Virus record (IMG/VR): IMGVR_UViG_2850756110_000006
Source of the DNA: a virus
Taxonomy: Duplodnaviria > Heunggongvirae > Uroviricota > Caudoviricetes
Reading direction: 5' to 3' (one strand)
DNA length: 36,404 nt
The notes beneath the pieces were generated by a model, which was given only the letters and a program-made list of their open reading frames with translations, searched no databases and was not told the origin of the DNA. This document shows positions 2,230 through 15,777 of this stretch, piece after piece (position 1 is the first letter of the stretch; each line of letters begins with the position of its first letter). The position numbers and the translations under genes are program-made.

Positions 2230-4677
2230 TTAACCGTCATGCATCATGCTGGCACGGGCGCGCGCACGTTTATCCCGCTCGTATTTTTCGAGCGCATCCT
2301 GTAACTGGCGGTCAGGCTGTGTCCCCGGCGCAGTACCACCCGTCAGGCTGATGTGATATTCGTTTTTACTCTGGTCCACATAAGAGCGGCCAGCCGGTGC
2401 CGTAACCGGCTGATAAGCCTGATAGCCTGCATAAGAGCTGGTCGCCGGAATATAACCACCGGTGCCATACGTGGCGGCATTAGTCCTTGCGGCGGTCTGG
2501 TCAAGTGTGTCTGACTCTTTGTTAATAACACCGAGTTTTTCCAGTACCCAGTCAATACCACTGCGCAGTTTGTTGAACGCATTAAGCGGCAGCATCAACG
2601 CGTCAGCCAGTGCCTGCCCGAACATGACGCCCGTGTCACGGAAACGGTTCAGGGTGTCCTGTGTGGCTTTAACCGGGGCAATCAGGTTTTTAAACCACTG
2701 CCACGCGGCCTGTAACTTTTCGCCCAGCCAGTCAAACACCGGCTTAAGTGGCGTGAACAGTTCCCCCACCGGCGCAAATGCCGCTTTCAGCCCTTCCACC
2801 ACACCGCCAAAGAATGCGCTGACAGGCTCCCAGTATTTACGGATAAGCAACGCCCCGGCGACAATGGCGGCCACCACGGCCACAACCGGCCAGCTAATCG
2901 CTCCAATGGCGGTCATAACAGCACTGCCAACCGTCGTGAAGATTGCCCCCATTGCGCCTGCTGCCGCGATGATGGCATTGATGCCGGTGATAACCGGCCA
3001 GGCTACGAGGCCAATGGCGCCGATGACACCAATCATTGCCAGTGCACCACCGACAATGATGCCGATGGTTGACGCCAGTGATTTGTTTTTCTGGATCCAG
3101 CCGTCGAGTTTTAACACATACTTTGTGGCCGTCTGCGTGAGCTTACGCAGTGCGCCTTCCTGCTGGTCAAACAGGTCAGTCCCCACCGCCTCATAAGCGG
3201 ACTGAAACTCCTTAAAGTCACCGCCGAGGTTGTCCTGCATGATATTTACCAGCTCTGCGGTCTTTCCGTCTGAGGCTTTAAACGCAGCGGTCAGTTTGTC
3301 CAGCTTTCCGGTTGAGGCGGCAGTCATCAGCACGGCGGCGGCTGAACTGGCCTCCTCCCCGAAAATGGTTTTCATGTATTCAGCCTGCTGGGCAGTACCG
3401 AGCCGGTTTTTCTCAAAACTGGCCTGCATTTCTTTCAGAATGGTAAATACTGGTCGGGTGTTTCCCTTACTGTCTGAGGTTTTCACACCAAGCTCTTTGA
3501 GTGCATCCCATGCTTTTCCCGTCGGTGCCTGCAGGCGGCTTAACACGGCACGGCTTCCCGTTCCCGCCATTGAGCCTGTGATTTTTGCATCATGCAGCGC
3601 CCCGACCATTGCGGCGGTTTCTTCAATGCTGACACCGGCATTTTTTGCCACAGGTGCGGCATAGGTCAGCGCATCGCTCATGCCGTCAAAATCGGCGGCG
3701 GTTTTGTTCATCGTCATGGAGAGAACATCCCCGATATGAGCGACCTTATCGTTTGAAAGCTGAAAGGCGGATTTCATCCCCATCAGCAGGGCGGCGTTTT
3801 CTTCCATCGTGCGACGGTTCGCCAGCGCCATATTCAGCGTGACCGGCGTTGCCGCCTGAATGGCATCAACATCCCCACCGGCTTTCGCAATAATAATCTG
3901 CGCACCAGCTGCATCATCTGCCGAGGCTGCGGTATTGTCGCCGAGCTGACGCGCCTGCTTGCGTAGTGCAGCCATTTCGGCGGAGTCTTTTACCACTCCG
4001 AGCACGGCCTGCAATTCTGAGTTTTTCTGCGCAAACTCATAACCGGGCATCAGCAGCTTAACTCCGGCCATCGTTCCCGCCGCCGCAATCCCCACACCGG
4101 CAGCGCCCACCGAGGCCATATTTCCGGCCAGTTCCTTTCCGGCCTGATAACGCTGTTTTACTGCGTTAAGTTTTGCCTGTTGTGCACTGACACGCGCCAG
4201 CGCGTCGCGCTGACGGTTAAGCTGTGCGGTGGTTTCACTGATACGGTTTTTCAGTCCCTGCTCATCATGTGCAAGATTGCGGGTATTAATTCCCACAGCG
4301 GCCAGTTCCCGCTGCTGGCGTTTAACGGAATCTGTCAGGCGGTTATATTTCGCCTGTAAGTCCTCCGCCGCACGCTTTGCGGATTCCAGCACTTTCGCCT
4401 GAGCACGGGTCGGACGTTCGGTGTTTTTAAACTGTGTGGCAAGGGCTTCGGCCTCCTGCCGTGCCTTTTCAAGTGCATGACCAGTCACGGCGAGCTGTGC
4501 ACTGGTCTTGCGGAATCCCTCAATACGGGATGCCTGACCGTTCAGCTCGCGCAGTGATTTTTGTGTTTCCCGGATATCCCCCGACAGCGATTTGCTCGCT
4601 GTGCGGATGGATTTAAACGGGCGGGATGCCTGGTCAACAGCCCTGAGCAATACCTGTAATTTTACATTGTTACTCAT
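2230..4677 (-). CDS. T: Tail tape measure protein T (815 aa)
   Basis: 815 aa, hydrophobic Gly/Ala-rich central region, P2 gpT position and length; ATG overlaps E' stop. Confidence 0.95.
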   Translation of the reverse strand: MSNNVKLQVLLRAVDQASRPFKSIRTASKSLSGDIRETQKSLRELNGQASRIEGFRKTSAQLAVTGHALEKARQEAEALATQFKNTERPTRAQAKVLESAKRAAEDLQAKYNRLTDSVKRQQRELAAVGINTRNLAHDEQGLKNRISETTAQLNRQRDALARVSAQQAKLNAVKQRYQAGKELAGNMASVGAAGVGIAAAGTMAGVKLLMPGYEFAQKNSELQAVLGVVKDSAEMAALRKQARQLGDNTAASADDAAGAQIIIAKAGGDVDAIQAATPVTLNMALANRRTMEENAALLMGMKSAFQLSNDKVAHIGDVLSMTMNKTAADFDGMSDALTYAAPVAKNAGVSIEETAAMVGALHDAKITGSMAGTGSRAVLSRLQAPTGKAWDALKELGVKTSDSKGNTRPVFTILKEMQASFEKNRLGTAQQAEYMKTIFGEEASSAAAVLMTAASTGKLDKLTAAFKASDGKTAELVNIMQDNLGGDFKEFQSAYEAVGTDLFDQQEGALRKLTQTATKYVLKLDGWIQKNKSLASTIGIIVGGALAMIGVIGAIGLVAWPVITGINAIIAAAGAMGAIFTTVGSAVMTAIGAISWPVVAVVAAIVAGALLIRKYWEPVSAFFGGVVEGLKAAFAPVGELFTPLKPVFDWLGEKLQAAWQWFKNLIAPVKATQDTLNRFRDTGVMFGQALADALMLPLNAFNKLRSGIDWVLEKLGVINKESDTLDQTAARTNAATYGTGGYIPATSSYAGYQAYQPVTAPAGRSYVDQSKNEYHISLTGGTAPGTQPDRQLQDALEKYERDKRARARASMMHDG

Positions 4678-5685: not shown

Positions 5686-6876
5686 TTAATTGCTGTTAAC
5701 CGAGGTGACCAGATTTGCCAGGTATTTATCGGTGATACGCTGGCGCAGGGTCAGGTTTTCAAGAGGAGGCACCGGGGTATAGTCGTAGTCGATATACAGT
5801 TTTCCGGCCTTGAGGGTTTCCGCATCGTTGGATTCTTCGCTAAACCAGCAGGTCGCATCCACGATATAGCCGTTTGTTTTCAGCTCACGGAATTTGGCAT
5901 TGATGCCGTCAACGATGTCACGAATCAGCGTTGCGGTGATGGGCTTGTCCACCGCCCACATGTGCGCCTCAGCCATCGTGTCGGCCAGTACCTGTGCGGT
6001 GCGGGTGTAGTTTTCAAAGAGGAACAGCGGGTCATCAGAGCAGGTACGGTTACCCCAGAAGCGGAAACCGTCACGGCGAATCAGTGTTGTGACGCCTGAC
6101 TCGTTAAGCAGGTCAGCATCGGTGCCGGACTCCTGCAAATCCCAGAATACAGATGCGCTGATGCCGGTAACACCGTTCACCCCGACGTTGGACAGCGTTT
6201 TATGCCAGCCCTGCTCCTGGTCGATTTTGGCACGCAGACCCAGCGCACGGGCGGTAGCATACGCGGTGGCGGTGGTACTGGTGACCGTATCCCATGCGAG
6301 GAAATCCGGCCAGATGACCATCAGCTCACGCTGGCTGAAATTCTGGCGGTAAGCTTTCACCTCGGAAATGGTTTTACAGCCCCATGCGCTGATATACCCG
6401 AAAGCGCGCAACTTCTGACAGACTGATGCCAGTGCAACAGCCACCTCTTTGGTATCCAGTCCCGGTACGCCGAGAATACGCGGTTTAACACCGGTTACCG
6501 ACTCCGCCGCCAGCAGGGCTTTCAGTCCGGTGTACTGACCGTTTTCGTCGGTGGTGCCGATGATATTGGAAACGGTCTGCGCGAGTTTCGTTTCTTCGTC
6601 GTCGCCGGTGCCGTCTTCCACGCGCACAACAACGGTGACCGGTTTTGACTGGTCAGCGATGGCCTGCAACGATGCCGCCAGCGTGCCTTTTTTACCGGCC
6701 TTTGCAATTGCGCTCTGCACATTGGTAATCAGCACCGGTTTATTGAGGGGGAAGGTTTCCGCATCCGCATCGCTGGCCGTGCAGACCATGCCGACAATGG
6801 CGGTGGATACGGTTGAAATGACGCGGGTGCCGTCGTTAATCTCCAGCACCTGCACGCCGTGATGATAGTCACTCAT
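5686..6876 (-). CDS. FI: Tail sheath protein FI (396 aa)
   Basis: Matches P2 gpFI in sequence and length. Confidence 0.95.
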   Translation of the reverse strand: MSDYHHGVQVLEINDGTRVISTVSTAIVGMVCTASDADAETFPLNKPVLITNVQSAIAKAGKKGTLAASLQAIADQSKPVTVVVRVEDGTGDDEETKLAQTVSNIIGTTDENGQYTGLKALLAAESVTGVKPRILGVPGLDTKEVAVALASVCQKLRAFGYISAWGCKTISEVKAYRQNFSQRELMVIWPDFLAWDTVTSTTATAYATARALGLRAKIDQEQGWHKTLSNVGVNGVTGISASVFWDLQESGTDADLLNESGVTTLIRRDGFRFWGNRTCSDDPLFLFENYTRTAQVLADTMAEAHMWAVDKPITATLIRDIVDGINAKFRELKTNGYIVDATCWFSEESNDAETLKAGKLYIDYDYTPVPPLENLTLRQRITDKYLANLVTSVNSN

Positions 6877-6986
6877 CCGTTTAACTCCGTGGTTAATGGG
6901 TGCAACTATTTTCTGTTGTACAGAGCATGAGACGCTATTTGATCTGTCTGGTCAGTGGATGAAACAACAGATACAGAAAAGGCGGG
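6877..6986 (-). promoter_or_regulatory. Presumed late promoter region for the FI-FII-E-T-U-D operon (P_F), now abutting the IS2 end
   Basis: Position upstream of FI as in P2; no convincing Ogr-site consensus could be verified by eye. Confidence 0.3.
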
Positions 6987-6997
6987 TGGATTTGCCC

Positions 6998-7903
6998 CTA
7001 TATTTCCAGACATCTGTTATCACTTAACCCATTACAAGCCCGCTGCCGCAGATATTCCCGTGGCGAGCGATAACCCAGCGCACTATGCGGATGCCATTCG
7101 TTATAATGCTCGAACGCCTCTGCAAGGTTCTTTGCTGCCGTTAACCCGTCTGGTTTGGGCATGATACTGATGTAGTCACGCTTTATCGTTTTCACGAAGC
7201 TCTCTGCTATTCCGTTACTCTCCGGACTCCGCACCGCCGTGTTCTTCGGTTCAAGTCCCAACATCCGGGCGAACTGGCGTGTTTCATTAGCCCGGTAGCA
7301 TGAACCATTATCCGTCAGCCACTCCACTGGAGACGACGGAAGATCGTTGCCGAAGCGGCGTTCCACCGCTCCCAGCATGACGTCCTGTACTGTTTCACTG
7401 TTGAAGCCGCCGGTAGTCACCGCCCAGTGCAGTGCCTCACGATCACAGCAGTCCAGCGCGAACGTGACACGCAGTCTCTCTCCGTTATCACAGCAGAACT
7501 CGAACCCGTCAGAGCACCATCGCTGATTGCTTTCTTTCACGGCCACTCTGCCTGTATGTGCCCGTTTCGATGGCGGTACAGCAGGTTTTCGCTCAAGCAA
7601 CAGCGCATTCTGGCGCATGATCCGGTAAACACGTTTGGCATTGATCGCAGGCATACCATCAAGTTCTGCCTGTCTGCGAAGCAGCGCCCATACCCGACGA
7701 TAACCATACGTGGGCAGCTCTCCGATAACATGGTGTATACGGAGAAGCACATCCGTATCATCAGTGTGACGACTGCGGCGGCCATCCATCCAGTCATCGG
7801 TTCGTCTGAGAATGACGTGCAACTGCGCACGCGACACCCGGAGACAACGGCTGACTAAGCTTACTCCCCATCCCCGGGCAATAAGGGCGCGTGCGCTATC
7901 CAC
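6998..7903 (-). CDS. insD: IS2 transposase OrfB (InsD, 301 aa)
   Basis: [34 protein letters not shown]... matches IS2 InsD; integrase-like core. Confidence 0.9.
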
Positions 7904-8226
7904 TTTTTTGCCCGTCCATATTCAACGGCTTCTTTGAGGAGTTCATTTTCCATCGTTTTCTTGCCGAGCAGGCGCTGGAGTTCTTTAATCTGCTTCATGG
8001 CGGCAGCAAGTTCAGAGGCAGGAACAACCTGTTCTCCGGCGGCCACAGCAGTAAGACTTCCTTCCTGGTATTGCTTACGCCAGAGAAATAACTGGCTGGC
8101 TGCTACACCATGTTGCCGGGCAACGAGGGAGACCGTCATCCCCGGTTCAAAGCTCTGCTGAACAATTGCGATCTTTTCCTGTGTGGTACGCCGTCTGCGT
8201 TTCTCCGGCCCTAAGACATCAATCAT
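7861..8226 (-). CDS. insC: IS2 OrfA (InsC, 121 aa); an A6G slippery site at + coordinates 7904-7910 would fuse it to InsD
   Basis: [41 protein letters not shown]... matches IS2 InsC; CAAAAAAG on the minus strand just upstream of the insD ATG. Confidence 0.9.
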
Positions 8227-8399
8227 CTGTACTCCAATGACTAGTCTAAAAACTAGTATTAAGACTATCACTTATTTAAGTGATACTGGTTGTCTGGAGA
8301 TTCAGGGGGCCAGTCTAACGGGCAATTCGCCCGCCTGTCCTAGTTTGTACTCACTCATTTTCCGACTGACAATTTACATAGCCAAAACGCTATCAAATC

Positions 8400-8433
8400 T
8401 GACAGTCTGCTTTGAGCGAAAAGCAGACTGTCA
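8400..8433. repeat. Perfect palindrome (14-bp stem, 6-nt loop), motif copy A of a three-member family
   Basis: TGACAGTCTGCTTT-GAGCGA-AAAGCAGACTGTCA read directly; no adjacent T-run. Confidence 0.7.
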
Positions 8434-8548
8434 CGCGTTGAAGTTAATTGTATTACTTAGATAAACACTATCATTTTCCTGACGTTAAGTTGTATCTTTG
8501 ATAGGATTAAAAAACGTATAGATAGCTTATGCTACTGAGGGAATAAAA

Positions 8549-9358
8549 ATGACGAAAATTAGTGAACGATGGAAGCACAATGGCATTACTGAAGGTTATT
8601 GCAATATTTGTGGGAAATATGGCTTGCTCACAAAAGATCATGTTCCTCCAAAGTGCGCCATAACCTTAGGCCCTGTTTTGCAGAAAACAGTTAGCGAATT
8701 TTTTGGTATTCAGGAACCAGTTAAACCATTAAATGCTAAAAATGGCTCTTATTTCAGAACCATTTGCAGCCACTGTAACAATAAGGTATTAGGTGGGCTC
8801 GATGTTGCAATTGAAAATGTAACAAAGTCCTTTAAAGAACAGTTAAGTCGATATATGAATGGTATGAATGTATATCCATTCATTAGAATACCTTTTGATA
8901 GCATATCTTTCACTAAGGCTATGATTGGGCACGTGCTATCAGCAACTTCAGTTGAAGATTGTAAAAAAGAACCCGTAGATAGCCCCTTCTATACACCTTT
9001 AAAGGATTATGTTTTGGGTAAAAATTCAAGTTTTGAGGAAACTCATGATATTTACTACTGGTTTTACCCACACAGAATGCACATATCCGCTCAAAGTGTA
9101 GCATTTATGAACGAAGGACATGTGGCATTTATTTGTGCTTTACATTTTTTTCCTATCGGTTTTATTATCACAATGAAAAATGAAGGAACATACCCTGCCC
9201 ACTCTACAAAATTAGAACTTGAAGATAAATTCCTTACATTTAATATGACCTCTATAAATTATGAGTATACGACATTTCCATTTGTAAATCTTAAGGGAAA
9301 CCAAATGTATGCGATAAGCAACGGTCATACTTGTGTGAGTTATCCAATAATTAAGTGA
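8549..9358 (+). CDS. AT-rich accessory protein (269 aa) with N-terminal HNH/His-Me-finger-like motif (CxxC...DHVPP...CSHCNNK) and an unrecognised C-terminal domain
   Basis: Intact ORF with GAGGGA SD 7 nt before the ATG; C18-x2-C21, D30-H31, C-x2-C-N-N-K spacing resembles HNH nucleases; base composition far more AT-rich than flanking phage genes. Confidence 0.75.
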   Translation: MTKISERWKHNGITEGYCNICGKYGLLTKDHVPPKCAITLGPVLQKTVSEFFGIQEPVKPLNAKNGSYFRTICSHCNNKVLGGLDVAIENVTKSFKEQLSRYMNGMNVYPFIRIPFDSISFTKAMIGHVLSATSVEDCKKEPVDSPFYTPLKDYVLGKNSSFEETHDIYYWFYPHRMHISAQSVAFMNEGHVAFICALHFFPIGFIITMKNEGTYPAHSTKLELEDKFLTFNMTSINYEYTTFPFVNLKGNQMYAISNGHTCVSYPIIK

Positions 9359-9412
9359 CGGCTAAATCATACAATCTACGCATGTTCACTTTCTACATAT
9401 ACCATCTATAAT

Positions 9413-9437
9413 GTCCGCTGTTGGCACAAAGCAGACG
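9413..9437. repeat. Imperfect palindrome, motif copy B, between the convergent 269-aa and 425-aa genes
   Basis: GTCCGCTGTT-GGCAC-AAAGCAGACG, related to copies A and C. Confidence 0.55.
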
Positions 9438-9498
9438 CCCACTCTCACGCGAATGCTTTGCCCTTGACTTGCCAACAACCGTATCGCTTGCTCCGCAA

Positions 9499-10776
9499 CT
9501 ATGGTTTTTTATTAGAATCTTCGCCACTAAATAAATTATAATAAATTGATTTTATTAGATATCTGTCAGAATCTATATGGTCAGCACGAGTAGCATGCTC
9601 TAATGTTTCAAATGCTAGGGTTTGTGCGGCTTCAGCAAAAATTCCAGGCCAACCCTTACTCAGCATCGACAGTCCTTTAAGGACCCTTATCTGAATTTCC
9701 CTCATACTGGCACCATCGCGCGCAACAGGTGAGAAAAAGTCTTCAAGTAGATCGTTATTCTGAAGTGGTGCAACATGTACAGAAGGATATTTCACTTCTA
9801 TTTCATCAGATTTATTCTGCGCGTAAGCGGAAAGTATACGTACACCTCTGCCAATGACATCAATGGCGGTTCCAGGATCGTTCACTGCGGGGGAAAGGGC
9901 TCGGCAGGCTATTTCGGCCATGACGCTAAGACAAAATCGGGGGTCCTGAGCAAATGAACGTACATCCGAGACAATAATCGTCTCAAGTAAATCGGTGCTG
10001 ATTGATGACTCCTGGCCCTGACTCAGGTACAAAACTGGCGTGGACGGATGTATGAAACTGCCCGGCTGCGCCACGAGGTATACATGACGGGGATCATTGG
10101 TCAGCAGCTTGCTGAGTTTCACCATATCAACATATTCAACATAGCCAATCTTTTTCGGATAAACTGCAACCGTTCCTTTCGGCTGTTCATTGTTCTCAAG
10201 CCATGGATATCCGCCGAGACAGGGATTTCTTGCTCTCGCAATAAATGTTTCGATGGCCGCCTGTTCTACTTTTGCCGTTGTCTCACCAACCCTCCCCAGA
10301 GAGGTCAAATGCTGTATCCAGCGAAGCAATGTGATGAGGATTAAGGCAATGACAACCAGTGTTACAATGAATAAAATGACTCTCCCCCTTTCTCCATAAG
10401 CTCCCATATTGAGGGCAATAATCCCTACCAGACTGAAGAGAAAAGAACCGATGAAGGTGGCCAGTACATTTTGTGTGGTGACGTCTTCAACAACTAAACG
10501 AGTAGCTCTGGGAGTCACATTAGTAGTGGCTGAACCGTAGGCTGTGACCATGATGCTCAGCGAAAATGTGGTCACTGCCAGCATACTCGATGCCAGTATG
10601 TTCAGAATGTTATCGACTGCTTCCGCACCAACCTTCACGGAAACCGACTCAGGTATCATTGATTTAAAAAGAATTGATAAAAGGGCCGTTATTATTGCGA
10701 CAATTGCGAATAACGTTGCCCTGAACCATAGTTTTTTAAATGTCTGCTTCAGCATCCATTTCCAGCGTGAAATCAT
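9499..10776 (-). CDS. Membrane protein of unknown function (about 425 aa): four predicted N-terminal TM helices plus a roughly 270-aa soluble C-terminal domain; possibly DUF2254-like
   Basis: Intact ORF; start chosen at the second ATG (10776), which has a GAGGGA SD, the track start at 10791 does not; hydrophobic segments ATLFAIVAIITALLSILF, ILASSMLAVTTFSLSIMV, VLATFIGSFLFSLVGIIAL, VILFIVTLVVIALILITLL; family assignment from memory only. Confidence 0.7.
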   Translation of the reverse strand: MISRWKWMLKQTFKKLWFRATLFAIVAIITALLSILFKSMIPESVSVKVGAEAVDNILNILASSMLAVTTFSLSIMVTAYGSATTNVTPRATRLVVEDVTTQNVLATFIGSFLFSLVGIIALNMGAYGERGRVILFIVTLVVIALILITLLRWIQHLTSLGRVGETTAKVEQAAIETFIARARNPCLGGYPWLENNEQPKGTVAVYPKKIGYVEYVDMVKLSKLLTNDPRHVYLVAQPGSFIHPSTPVLYLSQGQESSISTDLLETIIVSDVRSFAQDPRFCLSVMAEIACRALSPAVNDPGTAIDVIGRGVRILSAYAQNKSDEIEVKYPSVHVAPLQNNDLLEDFFSPVARDGASMREIQIRVLKGLSMLSKGWPGIFAEAAQTLAFETLEHATRADHIDSDRYLIKSIYYNLFSGEDSNKKP

Positions 10777-10839
10777 TCTGCATTCCCTCATATTGCAGCC
10801 GGGATAAATAAATGCCGCCTCTGTGGCGGCATGTTGCTG

Positions 10840-12840
10840 TTAACGAACCAGATGCAGGAAGTGCAGGTGTTTTTCGTACTGGTCCAGTATGTCATTAATC
10901 AGCTGTTCCTGATTCCAGCCCATTACATCATAATTTTGGCCGCCCTCTTTGAGATAGACTTCAGCGCGATAATATCGATGTTGTTCACTCTGCTGCTCAT
11001 CATTATCCAGCGCAGCGAGCGCGAAGGTCGGTGAGTTATACCCGCGAAGCCTCACTTCATATATATAATTCAGCTCGTTGCCCAAATCGACTTCAAGGCG
11101 AATACGATCCTCGGCGGCGTCACTGATGTGGCTTATCGTTCCCTGCTTGTTAAGTTCCTCCTGAACCAGCGTCATGGCGGGTTGGATAATGTCGTCCATA
11201 AAACGTTTCACAAGAGAGCGCTTCGGCAAATACGCGATATTGCGTAACCTTCTCTGCCAGGGAATTGGGTTACGTGCAGCCGTAGGAGCAATAGTCGCCA
11301 TGCTAAGGCTTTCACGCTTGGTCAAATCCCGACGCAGGGCTTTTAACAGTCCGTATATGGATATTAATAAGATAACTGAGAAGGGCAATGCACTCGCTAT
11401 CGTTACGGTTTGCAACGCACTCAGCCCCCTGCGATCAGCAGGGCAATAGCAACAACGCCCATGAGCAATGCCCAGAAAATTCGCTGCCAGACGGGCGTGT
11501 TTGCCACCCCACCTGATGCCAGAGTATCCACAACCATTGCCCCGAATCAGCAGACGTTACAAAGAAGACGATGACCATCGCCATTGCAATGAATGACAGC
11601 ACGGAAGAGAACGGGAAATGCTCCAGGAAATTAAACAGGGCAAGCGCAACATCCTGCTGAACGGTATTGGCGAGGTCAGTGGCGCCCTGGTTCATGATGA
11701 GATAGATGGCGCTGTTTCCAAACACCGTCATCCACATGAGCGTAAAGCCGGCGGGAACAAACAACACGCCAGTCACGAACTCACGAATTGTCCTGCCGCG
11801 GGAAACGCGTGCAATGAACATACCTACAAACGGCGACCATGAAAGCCACCATCCCCAGTATAATAATGTCCAGCCCCCAGCCAGTTGCTCGACTTGGGTT
11901 CATACGCGTAAAGGTTGAACGTTTTACTCACCAGTTCCGACAGATAACCACCCGTATTTTCCACAAATGACTTCAGCAGAAGCACAGTGGGACCCAGGCA
12001 CAAGACCAGCGCCAGGAGCAACACCGCCAGGCCCAGATTAAGCTCAGACAGGATGCGTATTCCCTTGTCCAGGCCGGACACCACCGAAATCGTCGCTAAC
12101 CCCGTGATGACCACGATCAAAATGACCTGTACCGTTTCATTGATGGGCACGCCGAAAAGATGGTTCAAACCGGCATTCACCTGCAATACACCGTAACCCA
12201 GCGATGTTGCAACGCCAAAGACAGTGCCTATCACGGCGAAGATATCAACCGCGTGGCCTATAGGCCCGTAAATGCGATCGCCGATAATGGGATAGAGCGC
12301 AGAACGCAGCGTTAAAGGCAGACCGTGACGGTAACTGAAAAAGGCCAGAATCAGCGCCACGATGGCATAAATTGCCCATGCGTGCAGACCCCAGTGGAAG
12401 AACGTCAGGCGCATGGCTTCCTTCGCTGCCGCAACGGTCTCTGGAGTGCCGACAGGTGGCGAAAGATAATGCATCACAGGTTCGGCAACGCCAAAGAACA
12501 TCAGGCCGATCCCCATCCCTGCCGAAAAAAGCATCGCGAACCAGGAGTGGTAGCTGAAATCAGGCTGCGCATGGTCTGGGCCCAGCTTTATATCACCGTA
12601 ACGTGAGAGTCCAAGGAACGTGACGCTCAGTAAAATCAGGGCCACAGCAAGTATGTAGAACCAGCTGGCATTCGTGAAGATTTGTTGCTGAAGTAGTTTA
12701 AAATTTTTGTCGGCGACATCCGGGAATACGGCGGCAAAGGCGACAAGAAGGAAAATTAGCAAAGCAGATGTAAAGAATACCGCTTTGTTAACCTGGCTTG
12801 TAGACTTCTTTGGGGTTGTATCATTTTCACTCATAATCAT
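10840..12840 (-). pseudogene. BCCT-family (BetT-like) betaine/choline transporter gene broken by at least three frameshifts
   Basis: Fragments 11824-12840, 11435-11821 and 10840-11415 carry consecutive BCCT segments, including [32 protein letters not shown] recovered only by switching frame near 11880; further shifts near 11510 and 11425. Confidence 0.8.
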
Positions 12841-13082
12841 TTATTCCATTAATTAAATCCGCACTGGATAGAAGGTACTACCTCTCACAGAGTAGCAAAG
12901 TTCAACTGGCTATGCGGGATTAATCGGAATGCATGGTGGAATGAGTGCCGATACAAATCATCCTATATTCTAAGGAGTTTTAAGTTACTCAGCCTGCCAA
13001 TTACTGGGGCATTTAATTTGTATGATCTGTATCAAAGCTGGGATATAAGTTAAGTGAAGTATATTAGGCACGAATTACCAGC

Positions 13083-13112
13083 GTCTGCTCTTGGCACAGA
13101 GCGGACTGTCAG
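13083..13112. repeat. Imperfect palindrome, motif copy C, between the transporter pseudogene and G
   Basis: GTCTGCTCT-TGGCAC-AGAGCGGACTGTCAG, related to copies A and B. Confidence 0.55.
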
Positions 13113-13155
13113 ATTAGACTTTACTCTGTGCTATAGGTATGTCAGCTCATACAAC

Positions 13156-13683
13156 TTATTGCGGCATTTCCGGCCATTCAGGATTTGCAGGATCCACACG
13201 ACTGACCAGAACGCTGTAGCGTTCCCATGCTTCCAGTCGGCTGCGCTCCTCATCTGTTGCCATATTCAGCCTGACAGCGCGCTCCAGCGGCAAAATCACG
13301 GATTCAGCTTCGGAAAGTAAAGTTGCCTTTTGTGATTCTGCCAGTTGCTGCTGTTCGTCTGCCGTATAAATCCGCTTAATCACGGCACCATCCTTAAACA
13401 TCCATTTACCTGAGTCATCAGCACGTCGGTTGGCGGTAATATCAGGAACCTCGACAACGCTAAAACCTTCAGGGTTAAGCGTTGAAGCATCTCTGGTGAT
13501 GCCGACAATTATATTATTCTCGTCGTAAACAATCTTTATCGTGTCTTCCTGAAAATTACTTACTTCCTCATACCAGTTTTTTCCGTCTTCAGACCATAAC
13601 CAGATAACATCAAAATTTTTTGTCAGTTGATATTGGGCAACAGTTTTGGGATTACCCGCAGTAATATTTTTTAAATGCTGCAT
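13156..13683 (-). CDS. G: Tail fibre assembly protein G (175 aa)
   Basis: Matches P2 gpG in length and sequence. Confidence 0.9.
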
Positions 13684-13686
13684 AAA

Positions 13687-15777
13687 TTACACCTGTGCGA
13701 CGTTATACCATGTGCCATTAATGTATTTTTGTATTGGTCTGAATACTGCCGGATCATCGCCATCAACTTCGCCGACAATGCCAAGCCCTGTAATTACATG
13801 GCCTGATTTCTCATACATCACGCCTTTTTGCATGGTCTGAACAACACGCGTACCCAGGCGAACATCTTTCACATAGCGGGAATCAAAATTTCCGTAATCT
13901 GATGGGTTAACACGTCCAGTAACACTCAGGCCATGCCCCATTGACACTCCGCCATTGGCGTTATTGATAGTCAGCGGTCTTAAACCGTTCCATGTTCCAA
14001 ATTTATCGCCAGAGGCCGTCAGCATTAAATATGTGCTGCCGCCATCATTCCTGATAAAGAATCCATAATTGCCATAAGCAATGCGCAGACCATTAGCACT
14101 GAGCGATGTAATTTCACCTCTTGAACGAAGACCATAAGCAGAGCTGAGTGATAATTCTTCCTGAGCATCAGTATTACCTGTCGCCCAGCGAATTACCCCG
14201 CCCTGTACTGTTTCATGCCAGATAGTGTCTCCTTCTCCACCACGAAACTTTCTGAGATATTTTTTGCCGCCTCTGGTGCCGGAACATAAGGCCGTAGACA
14301 TATAGGCATTCTGGCTTCCACTATCCTGATTAATAGTTCCAGACATAGAATCGCCGTAACGGTTCCAGTCACGCCGCCAGCCAGGAGCATAGTTGTCCCC
14401 GTGGTTAATATAAGTAAATTGCGCGCTTGTAGCGCCCCCACCGCTTGATGTTGTTGGTGTGGTAATACGAATAGTCATTGCAGACTTTATGCCCATTACC
14501 TCAATAACAGCGCCAGCAAGATGAATATTGCCACAGCCAGTATCCGTAATGATTTTGTTATTTGCATATGACCAGGAGCCTTTGCACATCCAGTACGGAT
14601 GATTAAATGCACCACGGGAATCCAGCCATTCAATAAACTGAGCGGTTGTCCAGTTTCCGGCTTCAGTGCTCAAAGCGCCGCTATAAGCACGACAGGCACC
14701 GATATTTTTCGTGAAGGTATCCTTTCCCGGAATATCCGCACCGTTCTGATCTTTCTGAAGACGTTTTTCAGCATTGTCATAGGCAGACTTCACCGCCTTT
14801 GGCGTTGCAGCCTGCGTTTCAGAATCACTGTTGGTGGCGCTACTGAGCTGGACAAGACCTTTTCGCGCCGTGGTGGCATCCTGTGCAGTGTATTTCCCGT
14901 TAGCAAGGTCATATGCTGTCTTAACCGCCTTTGGCGTTGCCGCAAGCGTTTCAGAATCGCTGTTGGTGGCGCTACTGAGCTGAACAAGGCCTTTTCGCGC
15001 TGTTGTGGCATCCTGTGCAGTGTATTTCCCGTTAGCAAGGTCATATGCTGCCTTTACCGCTTTCGGCGTTGCGGCGAGCGTTTCAGACGTGCTGTTAGTC
15101 GCACTACTGAGCTGAACAAGGCCTTTTCGCGCGGTGGTAGCGTCCTGTGCGGTATATTTCCCGTTAGCAAGGTCATATGCGGCCTTAACCGCTTTCGGAG
15201 TTGCAGCCAGTGTTTCAGACGTGCTGTTGGTCGCACTGCTTAACTGAGTAAAACCTTTTGCGGTCAGCGAGGCGTCAGGGTGACGTCGTGACTGTTCATG
15301 TTCTGCAATTTTGTCATCAACGTAATCCTGCGTTGCCATCACCGTTGTGGTGTCAATGGTCAGCTCCACTGAGGCCACACTGCTGACGATGATGACCATG
15401 CGGCAGGTCTGCGAACGCCCTGAGCCTTCGGCAAGGGCTGGCTTATAACTTTCGGCCATGTTCGCCACGGCAATTAGCGTTCCCGCATCATCGTACAGGC
15501 CAAGTTCACGCATCCAGAAACCGCCCACCTCCGGCGGAATAACCAGCTCTGCGATAATATAATTACTGTTTCGTTTGTCCTGGCTGATTTTGTTCAGCGC
15601 ATGTCGCCAGACTTCATGGATAAGCCCGGTCTGTCCGGCATCCGGGACAGGCAATTTACCACCGCCATCCCCGACGGCCATCGTGGTAATGTTGACCTTC
15701 CGCCCTCCCGGTGCGGTTGCCGCTGCCAGCTTTGCTGCACCGGCAGTGGTGATAACGGTTTTGAATTTTGTGCTCAT
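13687..15777 (-). CDS. H: Tail fibre protein H (696 aa) with internal tandem repeats and a variable C-terminal receptor-binding region
   Basis: Conserved P2 H N-terminus MSTKFKTVITTAGAAKLAAA...; about four 44-aa repeats (QLSSATNSxSETLAATPKAVKAAYDLANGKYTAQDATTARKGLV). Confidence 0.9.
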   Translation of the reverse strand: MSTKFKTVITTAGAAKLAAATAPGGRKVNITTMAVGDGGGKLPVPDAGQTGLIHEVWRHALNKISQDKRNSNYIIAELVIPPEVGGFWMRELGLYDDAGTLIAVANMAESYKPALAEGSGRSQTCRMVIIVSSVASVELTIDTTTVMATQDYVDDKIAEHEQSRRHPDASLTAKGFTQLSSATNSTSETLAATPKAVKAAYDLANGKYTAQDATTARKGLVQLSSATNSTSETLAATPKAVKAAYDLANGKYTAQDATTARKGLVQLSSATNSDSETLAATPKAVKTAYDLANGKYTAQDATTARKGLVQLSSATNSDSETQAATPKAVKSAYDNAEKRLQKDQNGADIPGKDTFTKNIGACRAYSGALSTEAGNWTTAQFIEWLDSRGAFNHPYWMCKGSWSYANNKIITDTGCGNIHLAGAVIEVMGIKSAMTIRITTPTTSSGGGATSAQFTYINHGDNYAPGWRRDWNRYGDSMSGTINQDSGSQNAYMSTALCSGTRGGKKYLRKFRGGEGDTIWHETVQGGVIRWATGNTDAQEELSLSSAYGLRSRGEITSLSANGLRIAYGNYGFFIRNDGGSTYLMLTASGDKFGTWNGLRPLTINNANGGVSMGHGLSVTGRVNPSDYGNFDSRYVKDVRLGTRVVQTMQKGVMYEKSGHVITGLGIVGEVDGDDPAVFRPIQKYINGTWYNVAQV
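14773..15261. repeat. Tandem 132-bp coding repeats (about 3.7 copies) inside H; coordinates approximate
   Basis: 44-aa period in the H protein; repetitive shadow ORFs on other frames (14599-15243, 14790-15044). Confidence 0.8.

Follow-up and report, generated by a model that had tools for sequence, protein, structure and literature searches.

Palindromic boundary sites in the G-FI hotspot of P2-like prophages as probable core sites for the exchange of gene cassettes

The DNA considered here is the 36,404-nucleotide virus record IMGVR_UViG_2850756110_000006 from IMG/VR (hereafter the window), a P2-like prophage of Escherichia coli whose cargo region corresponds to the Z/fun (G-FI) hotspot of P2. 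Three palindromic sites mark the ends of the cargo modules in this hotspot. Comparison with other phages, plasmids and chromosomes suggests that these palindromes are the core sites of a conservative site-specific recombination that delimits exchangeable gene cassettes, a reading to which we assign a probability of about 70%. The G-FI hotspot is a main reservoir of anti-phage systems, and turnover is faster for its cargo than for the core genes. A 2026 paper ('Shuttling, swapping and mixing') states that the recombination processes at hotspots 'still need to be elucidated'. The question of G-FI turnover becomes testable with a ~30-bp site, a crossover interval and a named candidate enzyme. The sites in the window are as follows.

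8405-8428, + strand: site A, class A; outer arm GTCTGCTTT at 8405-8413 (backbone), spacer GAGCGA at 8414-8419, inner arm AAAGCAGAC at 8420-8428 (moves with cassette 1)
8400-8433: extended perfect palindrome of site A
9413-9436, + strand: site B, hybrid class C; left arm GTCCGCTGT at 9413-9421 (cassette 1), spacer TGGCAC at 9422-9427, right arm AAAGCAGAC at 9428-9436 (cassette 2)
13083-13106, extending to 13111, + strand: site C, class C; inner arm GTCTGCTCT at 13083-13091 (cassette 2), spacer TGGCAC at 13092-13097, outer arm AGAGCGGAC at 13098-13106 (P2 backbone)

The pattern GTCYGCTNTT-N6-RAGCRGAC, with up to two mismatches allowed, occurs at only these three places in the 36.4 kb, compared with 0.03 occurrences expected from shuffled sequences, and none of 100 shuffles of the window matched the count of three. 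A looser scan of the window revealed no further copies, and the old/tin hotspot lacks one. Site A can form a hairpin with a 14-bp perfect stem and a 6-nt loop (-25.5 kcal/mol, z = -5) that is strong on either strand, whereas the hairpin of site C is moderate (-16.1 kcal/mol, z = -2.2) and that of site B is poor (-6.1 kcal/mol, z = +0.4). No T-tract follows A, B or C on direct reading, and a terminator scan of positions 6800-13800 calls none of them. A preliminary description of this DNA had reported the three copies, the perfect 14-bp stem at 8400-8433 and the missing T-tracts, all of which are borne out. It had also regarded B and C as imperfect versions of A. The three do share one family of arms, but they are not a single sequence, as the spacers (GAGCGA versus TGGCAC) define two classes.

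Each site spans ~30 bp in a 12-6-12 arrangement, wherein a 12-nt arm (AAY GTCYGCTYY) is followed by a 6-nt spacer and a 12-nt inverted arm (RRAGCRGAC RTT). It is the conservation in P2-like loci of the AAY that precedes and the RTT that follows the arms that yields this geometry. Class A sites carry the spacer GAGCGA and lie on the FI side, and class C sites carry the spacer TGGCAC and lie on the G side, with the same geometry in both. A class A site is in effect an inverted class C site whose spacer differs at two of six positions (GAGCGA versus GTGCCA, the reverse complement of the C spacer). Thus, as judged from the sequences, two classes of site exist. That these classes are heterospecific may be proposed from the absence of inverted cassettes (see below), which is what suggests that the A and C spacers would be incompatible.

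The arms show no sign of having been selected to pair with one another. Real partners give 7.11 and 6.19 pairs out of nine, compared with 6.98 and 6.13 for shuffled partners, and there is no covariation. Together with the poor fold of B, this lack of arm covariation argues for a consensus of half-sites that is bound by protein as duplex DNA, and not for a selected hairpin. Strand-specific selection of a hairpin, considered because of an asymmetry in G.T wobbles, was rejected, since the asymmetry flips between A and C as is predicted for inverted sites. Similarity to a sigma-54 promoter (TGGCAC-N5-TTGC) and to IHF, dif, attC and hix/gix sites was also considered and dropped by eye, because a second element or an arm failed to fit.

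To compare hotspots we used 80 IMG/VR loci fetched by means of FI, among which 48, including P2, Wphi, pro147 and the window, could be anchored on both FI and G. Four of the 48 are empty, with the whole region missing, and the motif is present in 43 of the 44 occupied loci. Specifically, these 43 carry a class A site 84 nt after the pF-side hairpin and/or a class C site 72-84 nt before the G stop codon. The forms found are GTCTGCTTT-GAGCGA-RRAGCRGAC for class A and GTCYGCTYY-TGGCAC-AGAGCGGAC for class C. In P2 itself (AF063097) a degenerate A copy (L001, ~1583-1606) and a C copy (3684-3707) lie around fun(Z), and boundary sites are similarly placed in Wphi, pro147 and the rest of the 43.

Conservation in these loci falls in steps across each site. 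Majority fractions are 0.94-1.0 for the flank, outer arm and spacer, 0.78-0.84 for the inner arm and 0.42-0.48 for the cargo beyond it. Site A keeps its outer arm and spacer unchanged in 30 unique P2 contexts, with a variable inner arm and unrelated DNA past it. Likewise, the spacer, outer arm and flank of site C are constant in 31 unique P2 contexts and the inner arm is variable. In other P2-like prophages, then, cargo swaps break at the sites, which was the comparison proposed in the preliminary description, and its suggestion of a recombination or cassette-boundary site is supported.

Two kinds of exception were seen among the P2-like phages. The phage pro147 (L002/L066) has cassette 1 but no site A, owing to an 80-bp deletion between direct repeats AAACRCTATCA (compare window 8383-8473). 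In four phages (L010, L035, L033 and L073) the hotspot and both of its conserved flanks are absent, and G ends 19-66 nt from the pF-side hairpin. Furthermore, the right flank matches the left one as an imperfect inverted repeat (36 nt, 83%). Because four phages lack both flanks and the flanks are mutually inverted repeats, the hotspot 'landing pad' itself looks like an acquired element. The flanks and cassettes of the window are listed below.

8319-8404: left backbone flank of the hotspot (pF/FI side); identity among P2-like loci is 90-97%, and the mean majority fraction as far as the site is 0.94
8420-9421, + strand: cassette 1, bounded by and including the inner arms of A and B, containing a 269-aa open reading frame (ORF) at 8549-9358 (+ strand)
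9428-13091, - strand: cassette 2, with a DUF2254 gene at 9499-10791 (Pfam) and a BCCT transporter pseudogene at 10840-11415, 11435-11821 and 11824-12840 (Pfam)
13107-13155: right backbone flank, extending to the G stop codon, mean majority fraction 0.96

The history of the window can be read from a P2-like relative, L011. Window positions 8319-9436 are 99.3% identical to L011, which then continues at window position 13083, and the single C site of L011 aligns to both B and C. This alignment indicates that the window equals L011 plus a precise 3,670-bp insertion, the DUF2254-BCCT cassette, with duplication of the site. The left arm of B is the arm that cassette 1 carries in L011 and in Rac-like loci, and the right arm of B is the arm of cassette 2 in seven other contexts. 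These identities define B as a hybrid composed of a cassette 1 arm, a spacer and a cassette 2 arm.

Both cassettes recur in unrelated surroundings. Cassette 1 (window 8404-9445) is 99.3-99.5% identical in four Rac-like loci (L129, L145, L164 and L187), each of which has the window's site-to-site distance of 1008 nt, and is also present in P2-like L011 and pro147. Cassette 2 (window 9410/9411 to 13109/13131) is 99.5-99.8% identical in plasmid pCRST047, in the PKF8 chromosome, where it adjoins a Rac-like prophage, and in five IMG/VR loci (L104, L123, L130, L136 and L167); a 94%-identical version of the 3,670-bp segment resides in ~1,400 E. coli chromosomes. Rac-like prophages are among the contexts of the near-identical cassette 2 as well, and in every context its homology begins and stops within the sites. 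At the left end of cassette 2 the arms differ between contexts (GTCCGCTGT, GGCTGCTCC, GTCCGCTTC, GTTTGCTTT and others) and TGGCAC-AAAGCAGAC is common to all. At the right end all contexts share GTCTGCTCT-TGGCAC and diverge from the right arm onward. A Qin-like site, GGCTGCTCC-TGGCAC-AAAGCGGAC, is empty in 11 loci and precisely occupied in pCRST047, where the insertion is the sole difference. Such near-identical copies show that cassettes have moved between P2-like phages, lambdoid prophages, plasmids and chromosomes.

Cassette 2 begins with 17 linker-like nucleotides after site B, followed by a truncated class A left arm, TGCTTTG (9454-9460). The same remnant (window region 9437-9460) is present in the 94%-identical chromosomal version (L086), which suggests how the DUF2254-BCCT segment was first captured. 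The BCCT gene (10840-12840) is divided into three ORFs of 191, 128 and 338 aa, and an intact protein of 666-667 aa is encoded in L123, L084 and L085. The 269-aa ORF of cassette 1 has no match in Pfam, NCBIfam or PADLOC.

Sites of this kind are not confined to P2-like phages. The scans used to collect them were samples, and therefore the numbers of sites and contexts given here are minimum values. A pattern scan of IMG/VR yielded at least 120 matches, with at least 93 loci that are not P2-like. The Rac-like hotspot adjoining the DUF977/ydaW gene has the same A...C architecture as P2 but its own outer arms. Further lambdoid phages have, in the stretch from replication gene P to the nin region, arrays of two to four cassettes whose neighbors are joined by a C site, 16-18 nt and an A site. 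The motif thus extends well past the window and P2, delimiting cassettes in Rac-like and further lambdoid phages, in K-12 Qin and on plasmids.

We grouped flanks crudely (Hamming distance of 8 or less in 40 nt) and counted the junctions. There are at least 119 unique C contexts (87 left by 42 right flank clusters) and at least 91 unique A contexts (29 by 75), and the P2 backbone is joined to at least 30 cargo-end clusters at the C site (23 + 7) and at least 29 at the A site. Arms follow their own flank in this census. At least 21 junctions have distinguishable parental arms on both sides, and here the crossover falls at positions 10-16 (C) or in the spacer-containing interval (A). Cassette pairs that share 300 nt or more have the same orientation relative to the sites in 53 cases and an inverted one in none. 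In contrast, the ORFs of the cargo point one way relative to the sites in 68 cases and the other way in 32. These comparative data show that the exchange is precise, conservative and orientation-keeping, and that it occurs within the spacer interval. Many of the cargo proteins contain defense-type domains (SMODS, TIR, SAVED, AAA_15/21, DUF4435 and patatin).

Several individual loci outside P2 deserve description. In K-12 Qin a class C site and a degenerate class A site (spacer GAGCAA) bracket flxA (L398 15982-16005 and 16973-16996; MG1655 1645981-1646004 and 1646972-1646995), the C site lying within the annotated ydfV ORF, and flxA thus resembles a cassette of this kind. No site is present in K-12 Rac. 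Lambdoid arrays in L190 (2462-4587, beside a reverse-transcriptase gene), L089, L105, L121, L156 and others share a conserved left flank, after which come TTCCGCTCT-TGGCAC-AGAGCGGAC, an 18-nt linker and GTCTGCTTC-GAGCGA, with cargo varying past that point. One cassette in L146 (2887-6671) holds two adjacent tyrosine-recombinase genes (335 and 707 aa) beside a UmuD/HumD-like gene. These integrases were set aside as the enzyme for the sites, and they probably belong to a separate mobile element nested in the cassette.

Exact copies of the 24-mer are also found in Serratia, Pantoea, Klebsiella, Citrobacter, Enterobacter, Leclercia, Mixta, Rahnella and Pseudomonas. In Pseudolabrys, Xanthobacteraceae, Hyphomicrobiales and Nitrosomonadaceae genomes they are present in many copies that follow the stop codons of ordinary genes. 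The copies in the first three of these groups (L205, L214, L229, L314 and many more) appear as a hairpin with the loop TTGGCACA after stop codons, and 16-18 nt later come hairpins whose arms are the same but whose loops differ (atGTCCGCTTTCGGGGGTAAAGCGGACat, atGTCCGCTTATGACCCAAAGCGGAC), forming clusters that resemble repetitive extragenic palindromic (REP) sequences and bacterial interspersed mosaic elements (BIMEs). A search for an enzyme encoded beside the sites in these soil bacteria gave, as the only enriched neighbor, an abundant paralogue of ABC substrate-binding proteins, which was rejected.

The following mechanism would account for these arrangements. A cassette lies between an A and a C site, which are mutually inverted, or between two C sites. 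A tyrosine recombinase would cut on each side of the 6-nt spacer, such that crossover within the spacer sends the cargo-side arm away with the cargo and leaves the outer arm on the backbone. In the window, a phage of the L011 type (A, cassette 1, C) would have gained the DUF2254-BCCT cassette through recombination between two C sites, an insertion that would have duplicated the site to give hybrid B and C. Recombination between A and C presumably does not occur, and hence cassettes would be neither excised nor inverted. They could be swapped against any other cassette flanked by A and C, including those of lambdoid prophages, in what would amount to a natural recombinase-mediated cassette exchange. 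The recombinase gene itself would be a module between a C spacer and an A spacer.

A candidate for this recombinase is encoded among the cargo. Pfam family Phage_integrase (PF00589) matches three cargo proteins (best E = 4.3e-26 among the three), which were located by a regular expression for the active site. In L099 a protein of 200 aa is encoded at the position that the 16-18-nt linker usually occupies, exactly between C-type and A-type sites, and relatives of it are encoded in 68 IMG/VR loci. In enteric homologues the A spacer is present in reverse complement (TCGCTC) 52-57 nt ahead of the ATG, and the C spacer, likewise in reverse complement (GTGCCA), ~30 nt past the stop codon. The gene-proximal arms of these genes are conserved, and the distal arms and flanks vary. 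Homologues from Idiomarina and a Cycloclasticus-like bacterium (77-84% identical) retain the downstream site, and an alphaproteobacterial chromosomal homologue of 56% identity is flanked by inverted TGGCAC and GTGCCA sites. In marine Gammaproteobacteria (L393-L396) an 84%-identical homologue lies beside an arsenic-resistance (ars) cluster and insertion sequence (IS) elements, from which it follows that the family is not restricted to phages.

The protein belongs to the tyrosine recombinase superfamily, as it matches PF00589 and carries the set of R-K-H-R-H-Y residues. Specifically, 15 sequences with identities as low as 54% all share R51, K79, H148, R151, H174 and Y183. Precomputed annotations assign PF00589 to all homologues, a very large family whose members are named only 'site-specific integrase' or 'tyrosine-type recombinase'. 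The protein falls far below the cut-offs for named groups: 44.7 bits for XerC (cut-off 335), 27.6 bits for XerD (cut-off 330) and, for its best NCBIfam match, the XerA/integron-integrase model NF040815, 54.6 bits (cut-off 220), with no match to the integron-integrase model TIGR02249 at E of 0.001 or less. Its size and active-site residues would fit FimB/FimE-type invertases, but PRK09871 gives only 27.5 bits against a cut-off of 222, which places it outside that group. The nearest solved relative is XerD (E = 0.004). Most likely, then, the enzyme for the sites is this tyrosine recombinase, which consists of a catalytic domain only and would act in trans.

Several observations weigh against a dedicated recombinase acting at these sites. 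The candidate is absent from the window, and it is encoded in one of the 80 P2-like loci (in truncated form) and one of the 117 other site-carrying viral loci listed. It is also absent from K-12 Rac and Qin, where ydfW (intK) was considered as a possible fragment and ruled out. Since the gene is rarely found in the hotspots that bear the sites but is present in 773 of 5,426 complete E. coli genomes (~14%), its action in trans has to be assumed. Moreover, its gene-proximal arms (AGGGCTGCT, GTCCCTTAT) deviate from the arm consensus. The invariance of the spacer arises partly by construction, as the pattern used to collect sites fixes it. Finally, the exact 24-mers that are scattered in REP-like fashion behind housekeeping genes of Alphaproteobacteria and Nitrosomonadaceae hint at a different or further function, or at a different enzyme.

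The chief rival explanation is that the sites are short conserved linkers at which cargo is swapped through homology, either by RecA or by annealing proteins of the Red/RecET/Erf type from phages, without any dedicated recombinase. Sites and linkers provide 24-66 bp of near-identity in otherwise unrelated DNA, and RecET is encoded by Rac-type prophages, which would suit such a process, as would the rarity of the candidate recombinase. Also, the spacer is the longest perfectly identical stretch between sites, and so recombination at short homologies would favor crossovers in the same place. However, all 21 listed junctions with distinguishable arms cross over in the central 7-11 nt, and there is no chimeric arm among them. 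In addition, insertions are precise and conservative, orientation is kept by 53 to 0, and both the 12-6-12 geometry of inverted arms and the framing of a recombinase gene by the two spacers would have to be coincidences. We therefore consider exchange by homology alone to be improbable, yet a stronger contender than either a single-stranded hairpin or a role of the RNA.

It is unlikely that the palindromes act as single-stranded hairpins, whether cut in or near the loop by an HUH enzyme (similar to RAYT/IS200 transposases or to rolling-circle Rep proteins) or folded like attC sites. Rolling-circle replication of P2 is initiated by an HUH protein, the breakpoints fall within the loop, the C - 16-18 nt - A junctions form inverted doublets that resemble REPINs, and alphaproteobacterial genomes have numerous dispersed copies that, like REPs, combine the same arms with other loops. 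In contrast, no Y1/HUH transposase was found near any site, the sole associated enzyme being of the PF00589 type, and attC boxes (GTTRRRY) are absent by direct reading. As described above, it is sequence and not structure that is conserved, without covariation; B barely folds, and the strand asymmetry is inconsistent between the two classes.

We regard as very unlikely a function in which the palindromes are transcription terminators, RNA-stabilizing hairpins or insulators of backbone and cargo genes and come to lie at cassette boundaries as a by-product. Site A does fold strongly on both strands, the alphaproteobacterial copies directly follow stop codons, and the P2 record annotates a terminator in the region. 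But the annotated P2 terminator is a different hairpin, site B is unstable, and neither T-tracts nor terminator calls were obtained for the three sites. Rfam matched no family in the window or in seven site-rich loci. Furthermore, cargo genes are found in both orientations with respect to the sites, and such a function would not account for the precise exchange at the spacer. Least probable of all is the shared operator that the preliminary description had offered as an alternative, for although the sites are palindromic and site A is upstream of the 269-aa ORF, they stand at both cassette ends whatever the gene orientation, as well as between convergent genes, and occur in P2-like and lambdoid phages that have unrelated regulators, with no conserved regulator gene alongside.

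The conservative site-specific recombination favored here could be part of something larger, although this extension is somewhat less likely to be right than wrong. It holds that a widespread and undescribed cassette-exchange system, based on the 200-aa tyrosine recombinase and two heterospecific spacers, moves defense and accessory genes among P2-like phages, lambdoid prophages, plasmids and chromosomes, and that the same pair of recombinase and site has given rise to the solo, REP-like sites of Alphaproteobacteria, in an integrase-family parallel to the RAYT/REPIN relationship. If the proposed site-specific exchange at a ~30-bp site holds, it would account for identical defense cassettes in unrelated phage families. 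It would also supply a sequence rule for delimiting cassettes, and thus for finding new defense genes (flxA of K-12 Qin is an example), and a compact natural cassette-exchange recombinase with two orthogonal spacers for engineering.

The remaining features around the hotspot are listed here for completeness.

5686-6876, - strand: tail sheath gene FI
6987-8317: IS3-family element, IS2-like, with ORFs at 7861-8271 and 6998-7903 on the - strand
13156-13683, - strand: tail-fiber assembly gene G (Pfam Caudo_TAP), followed by H

The IS3-family element is located between the pF promoter region and the hotspot, where it splits a terminator-like hairpin, GGCGGG|CAATTCGCCCGCC, that is unbroken in other P2-like phages. 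The flank 3' of class C sites (window 13107-13145) contains an inverted copy of TGGCACAG (CTGTGCCA, ~20 nt away) in P2-like and Rac-like phages. It also contains a promoter-like pair on the minus strand (-35 CTGACA, -10 TAAAGT, 13145-13118) that reads into the cargo.

The preliminary description did not recognize the motif for P2-like hotspots, but repeats at this locus have been reported. According to a 2022 review (PMC8987985), which cites Nilsson et al. 2004, inverted repeats that flank fun(Z) enable site-specific exchange. As the review relates it, the locus is the same (G-FI) and the inverted repeats flank cargo that is exchanged site-specifically with bacterial genomes. Inverted repeats flank the G-FI cargo in P2, Wphi, pro147 and 43 of the 44 occupied loci, and from this location we infer that the repeats of Nilsson et al. 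are the sites described here. The idea of boundary repeats and site-specific exchange at fun(Z), as that review conveys it, is therefore not new. An enzyme, two spacer classes, a spread to lambdoid phages and plasmids, and tandem arrays were not found in the literature, in which Nilsson et al. 2004 is represented by the citing review. Rousset 2022, the iLund4u preprint and the 2026 'Shuttling, swapping and mixing' paper mention neither repeats nor a recombinase, and a literature search with strings of the site sequence found no paper that contains them.

Among well-characterized systems, the pdif (XerC/XerD) modules of Acinetobacter plasmids are similar in that ~28-30-bp sites of arm-6-arm form, alternately inverted, coincide with breakpoints in many contexts. 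As with modules bounded by inverted 11-6-11 sites, the elements here have a 12-6-12 form, class A is an inverted class C, and modules and linkers alternate. However, their GTCYGCTYY and RRAGCRGAC arms bear no resemblance to the dif arm consensus, which places them outside the Xer/dif group, and the candidate enzyme is neither XerC nor XerD. The hosts are temperate phages of enteric bacteria, there are two spacer classes, and modules are parted by a doublet with a 16-18-nt linker and not by one shared site. Integron cassettes are likewise small, precisely integrated by a tyrosine recombinase, rich in defense genes and arranged in tandem arrays of one to four. Unlike integrons, these loci show no attC boxes (RYYYAAC, GTTRRRY) on direct reading and no adjacent integrase-attI-Pc platform, sequence rather than structure is conserved, cargo lies in both orientations, and the 200-aa enzyme is far below the integron-integrase cut-offs.

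REP/REPIN-RAYT systems share with the present sites the occurrence of short palindromes singly, as inverted doublets and in clusters, the framing of an enzyme gene and high copy number in some genomes. The C - 16-18 nt - A doublets and the copies in Pseudolabrys, Xanthobacteraceae and Hyphomicrobiales fit the definition of dispersed extragenic palindromes with inverted doublets. The framed gene, by contrast, encodes a Phage_integrase (PF00589) protein and not a RAYT, the surroundings of the sites in 120 genome loci showed no transposase cluster, and in enteric bacteria the sites bound cassettes and are not dispersed among core genes. Promoter-stem-loop (PeSL) cassettes of T4-type phages offer another parallel, in which mobile accessory genes of hyperplastic regions have short stem-loop elements at their borders. 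PeSLs are proposed to work by homology and include an early promoter, whereas crossover here is confined to the spacer and a recombinase is associated.

Rci, the recombinase of the R64 shufflon, is about twice as long as the 200-aa recombinase. Its sfx sites have a 7-bp spacer, GTGCCAA, and a conserved right arm, TCCGGTNNNTGG (PMC4176322). This spacer equals the class C spacer on the minus strand, GTGCCA(A/G), and in both systems good conservation is limited to a single arm beside the recombinase gene. The arms are nevertheless unrelated (TCCGGTACGTGG versus RRAGCGGACRTT), and Rci only inverts DNA, whereas none of the 53 cassette pairs here is inverted. The spacer match could be due to chance. 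A further analogy is the laboratory use of heterospecific lox or FRT sites, which share arms but differ in spacers, such that a cassette is stable and yet can be exchanged for another that is flanked alike. The system proposed here would differ in being natural and in that the incompatibility of its A and C spacers is suggested by the absence of inverted cassettes.

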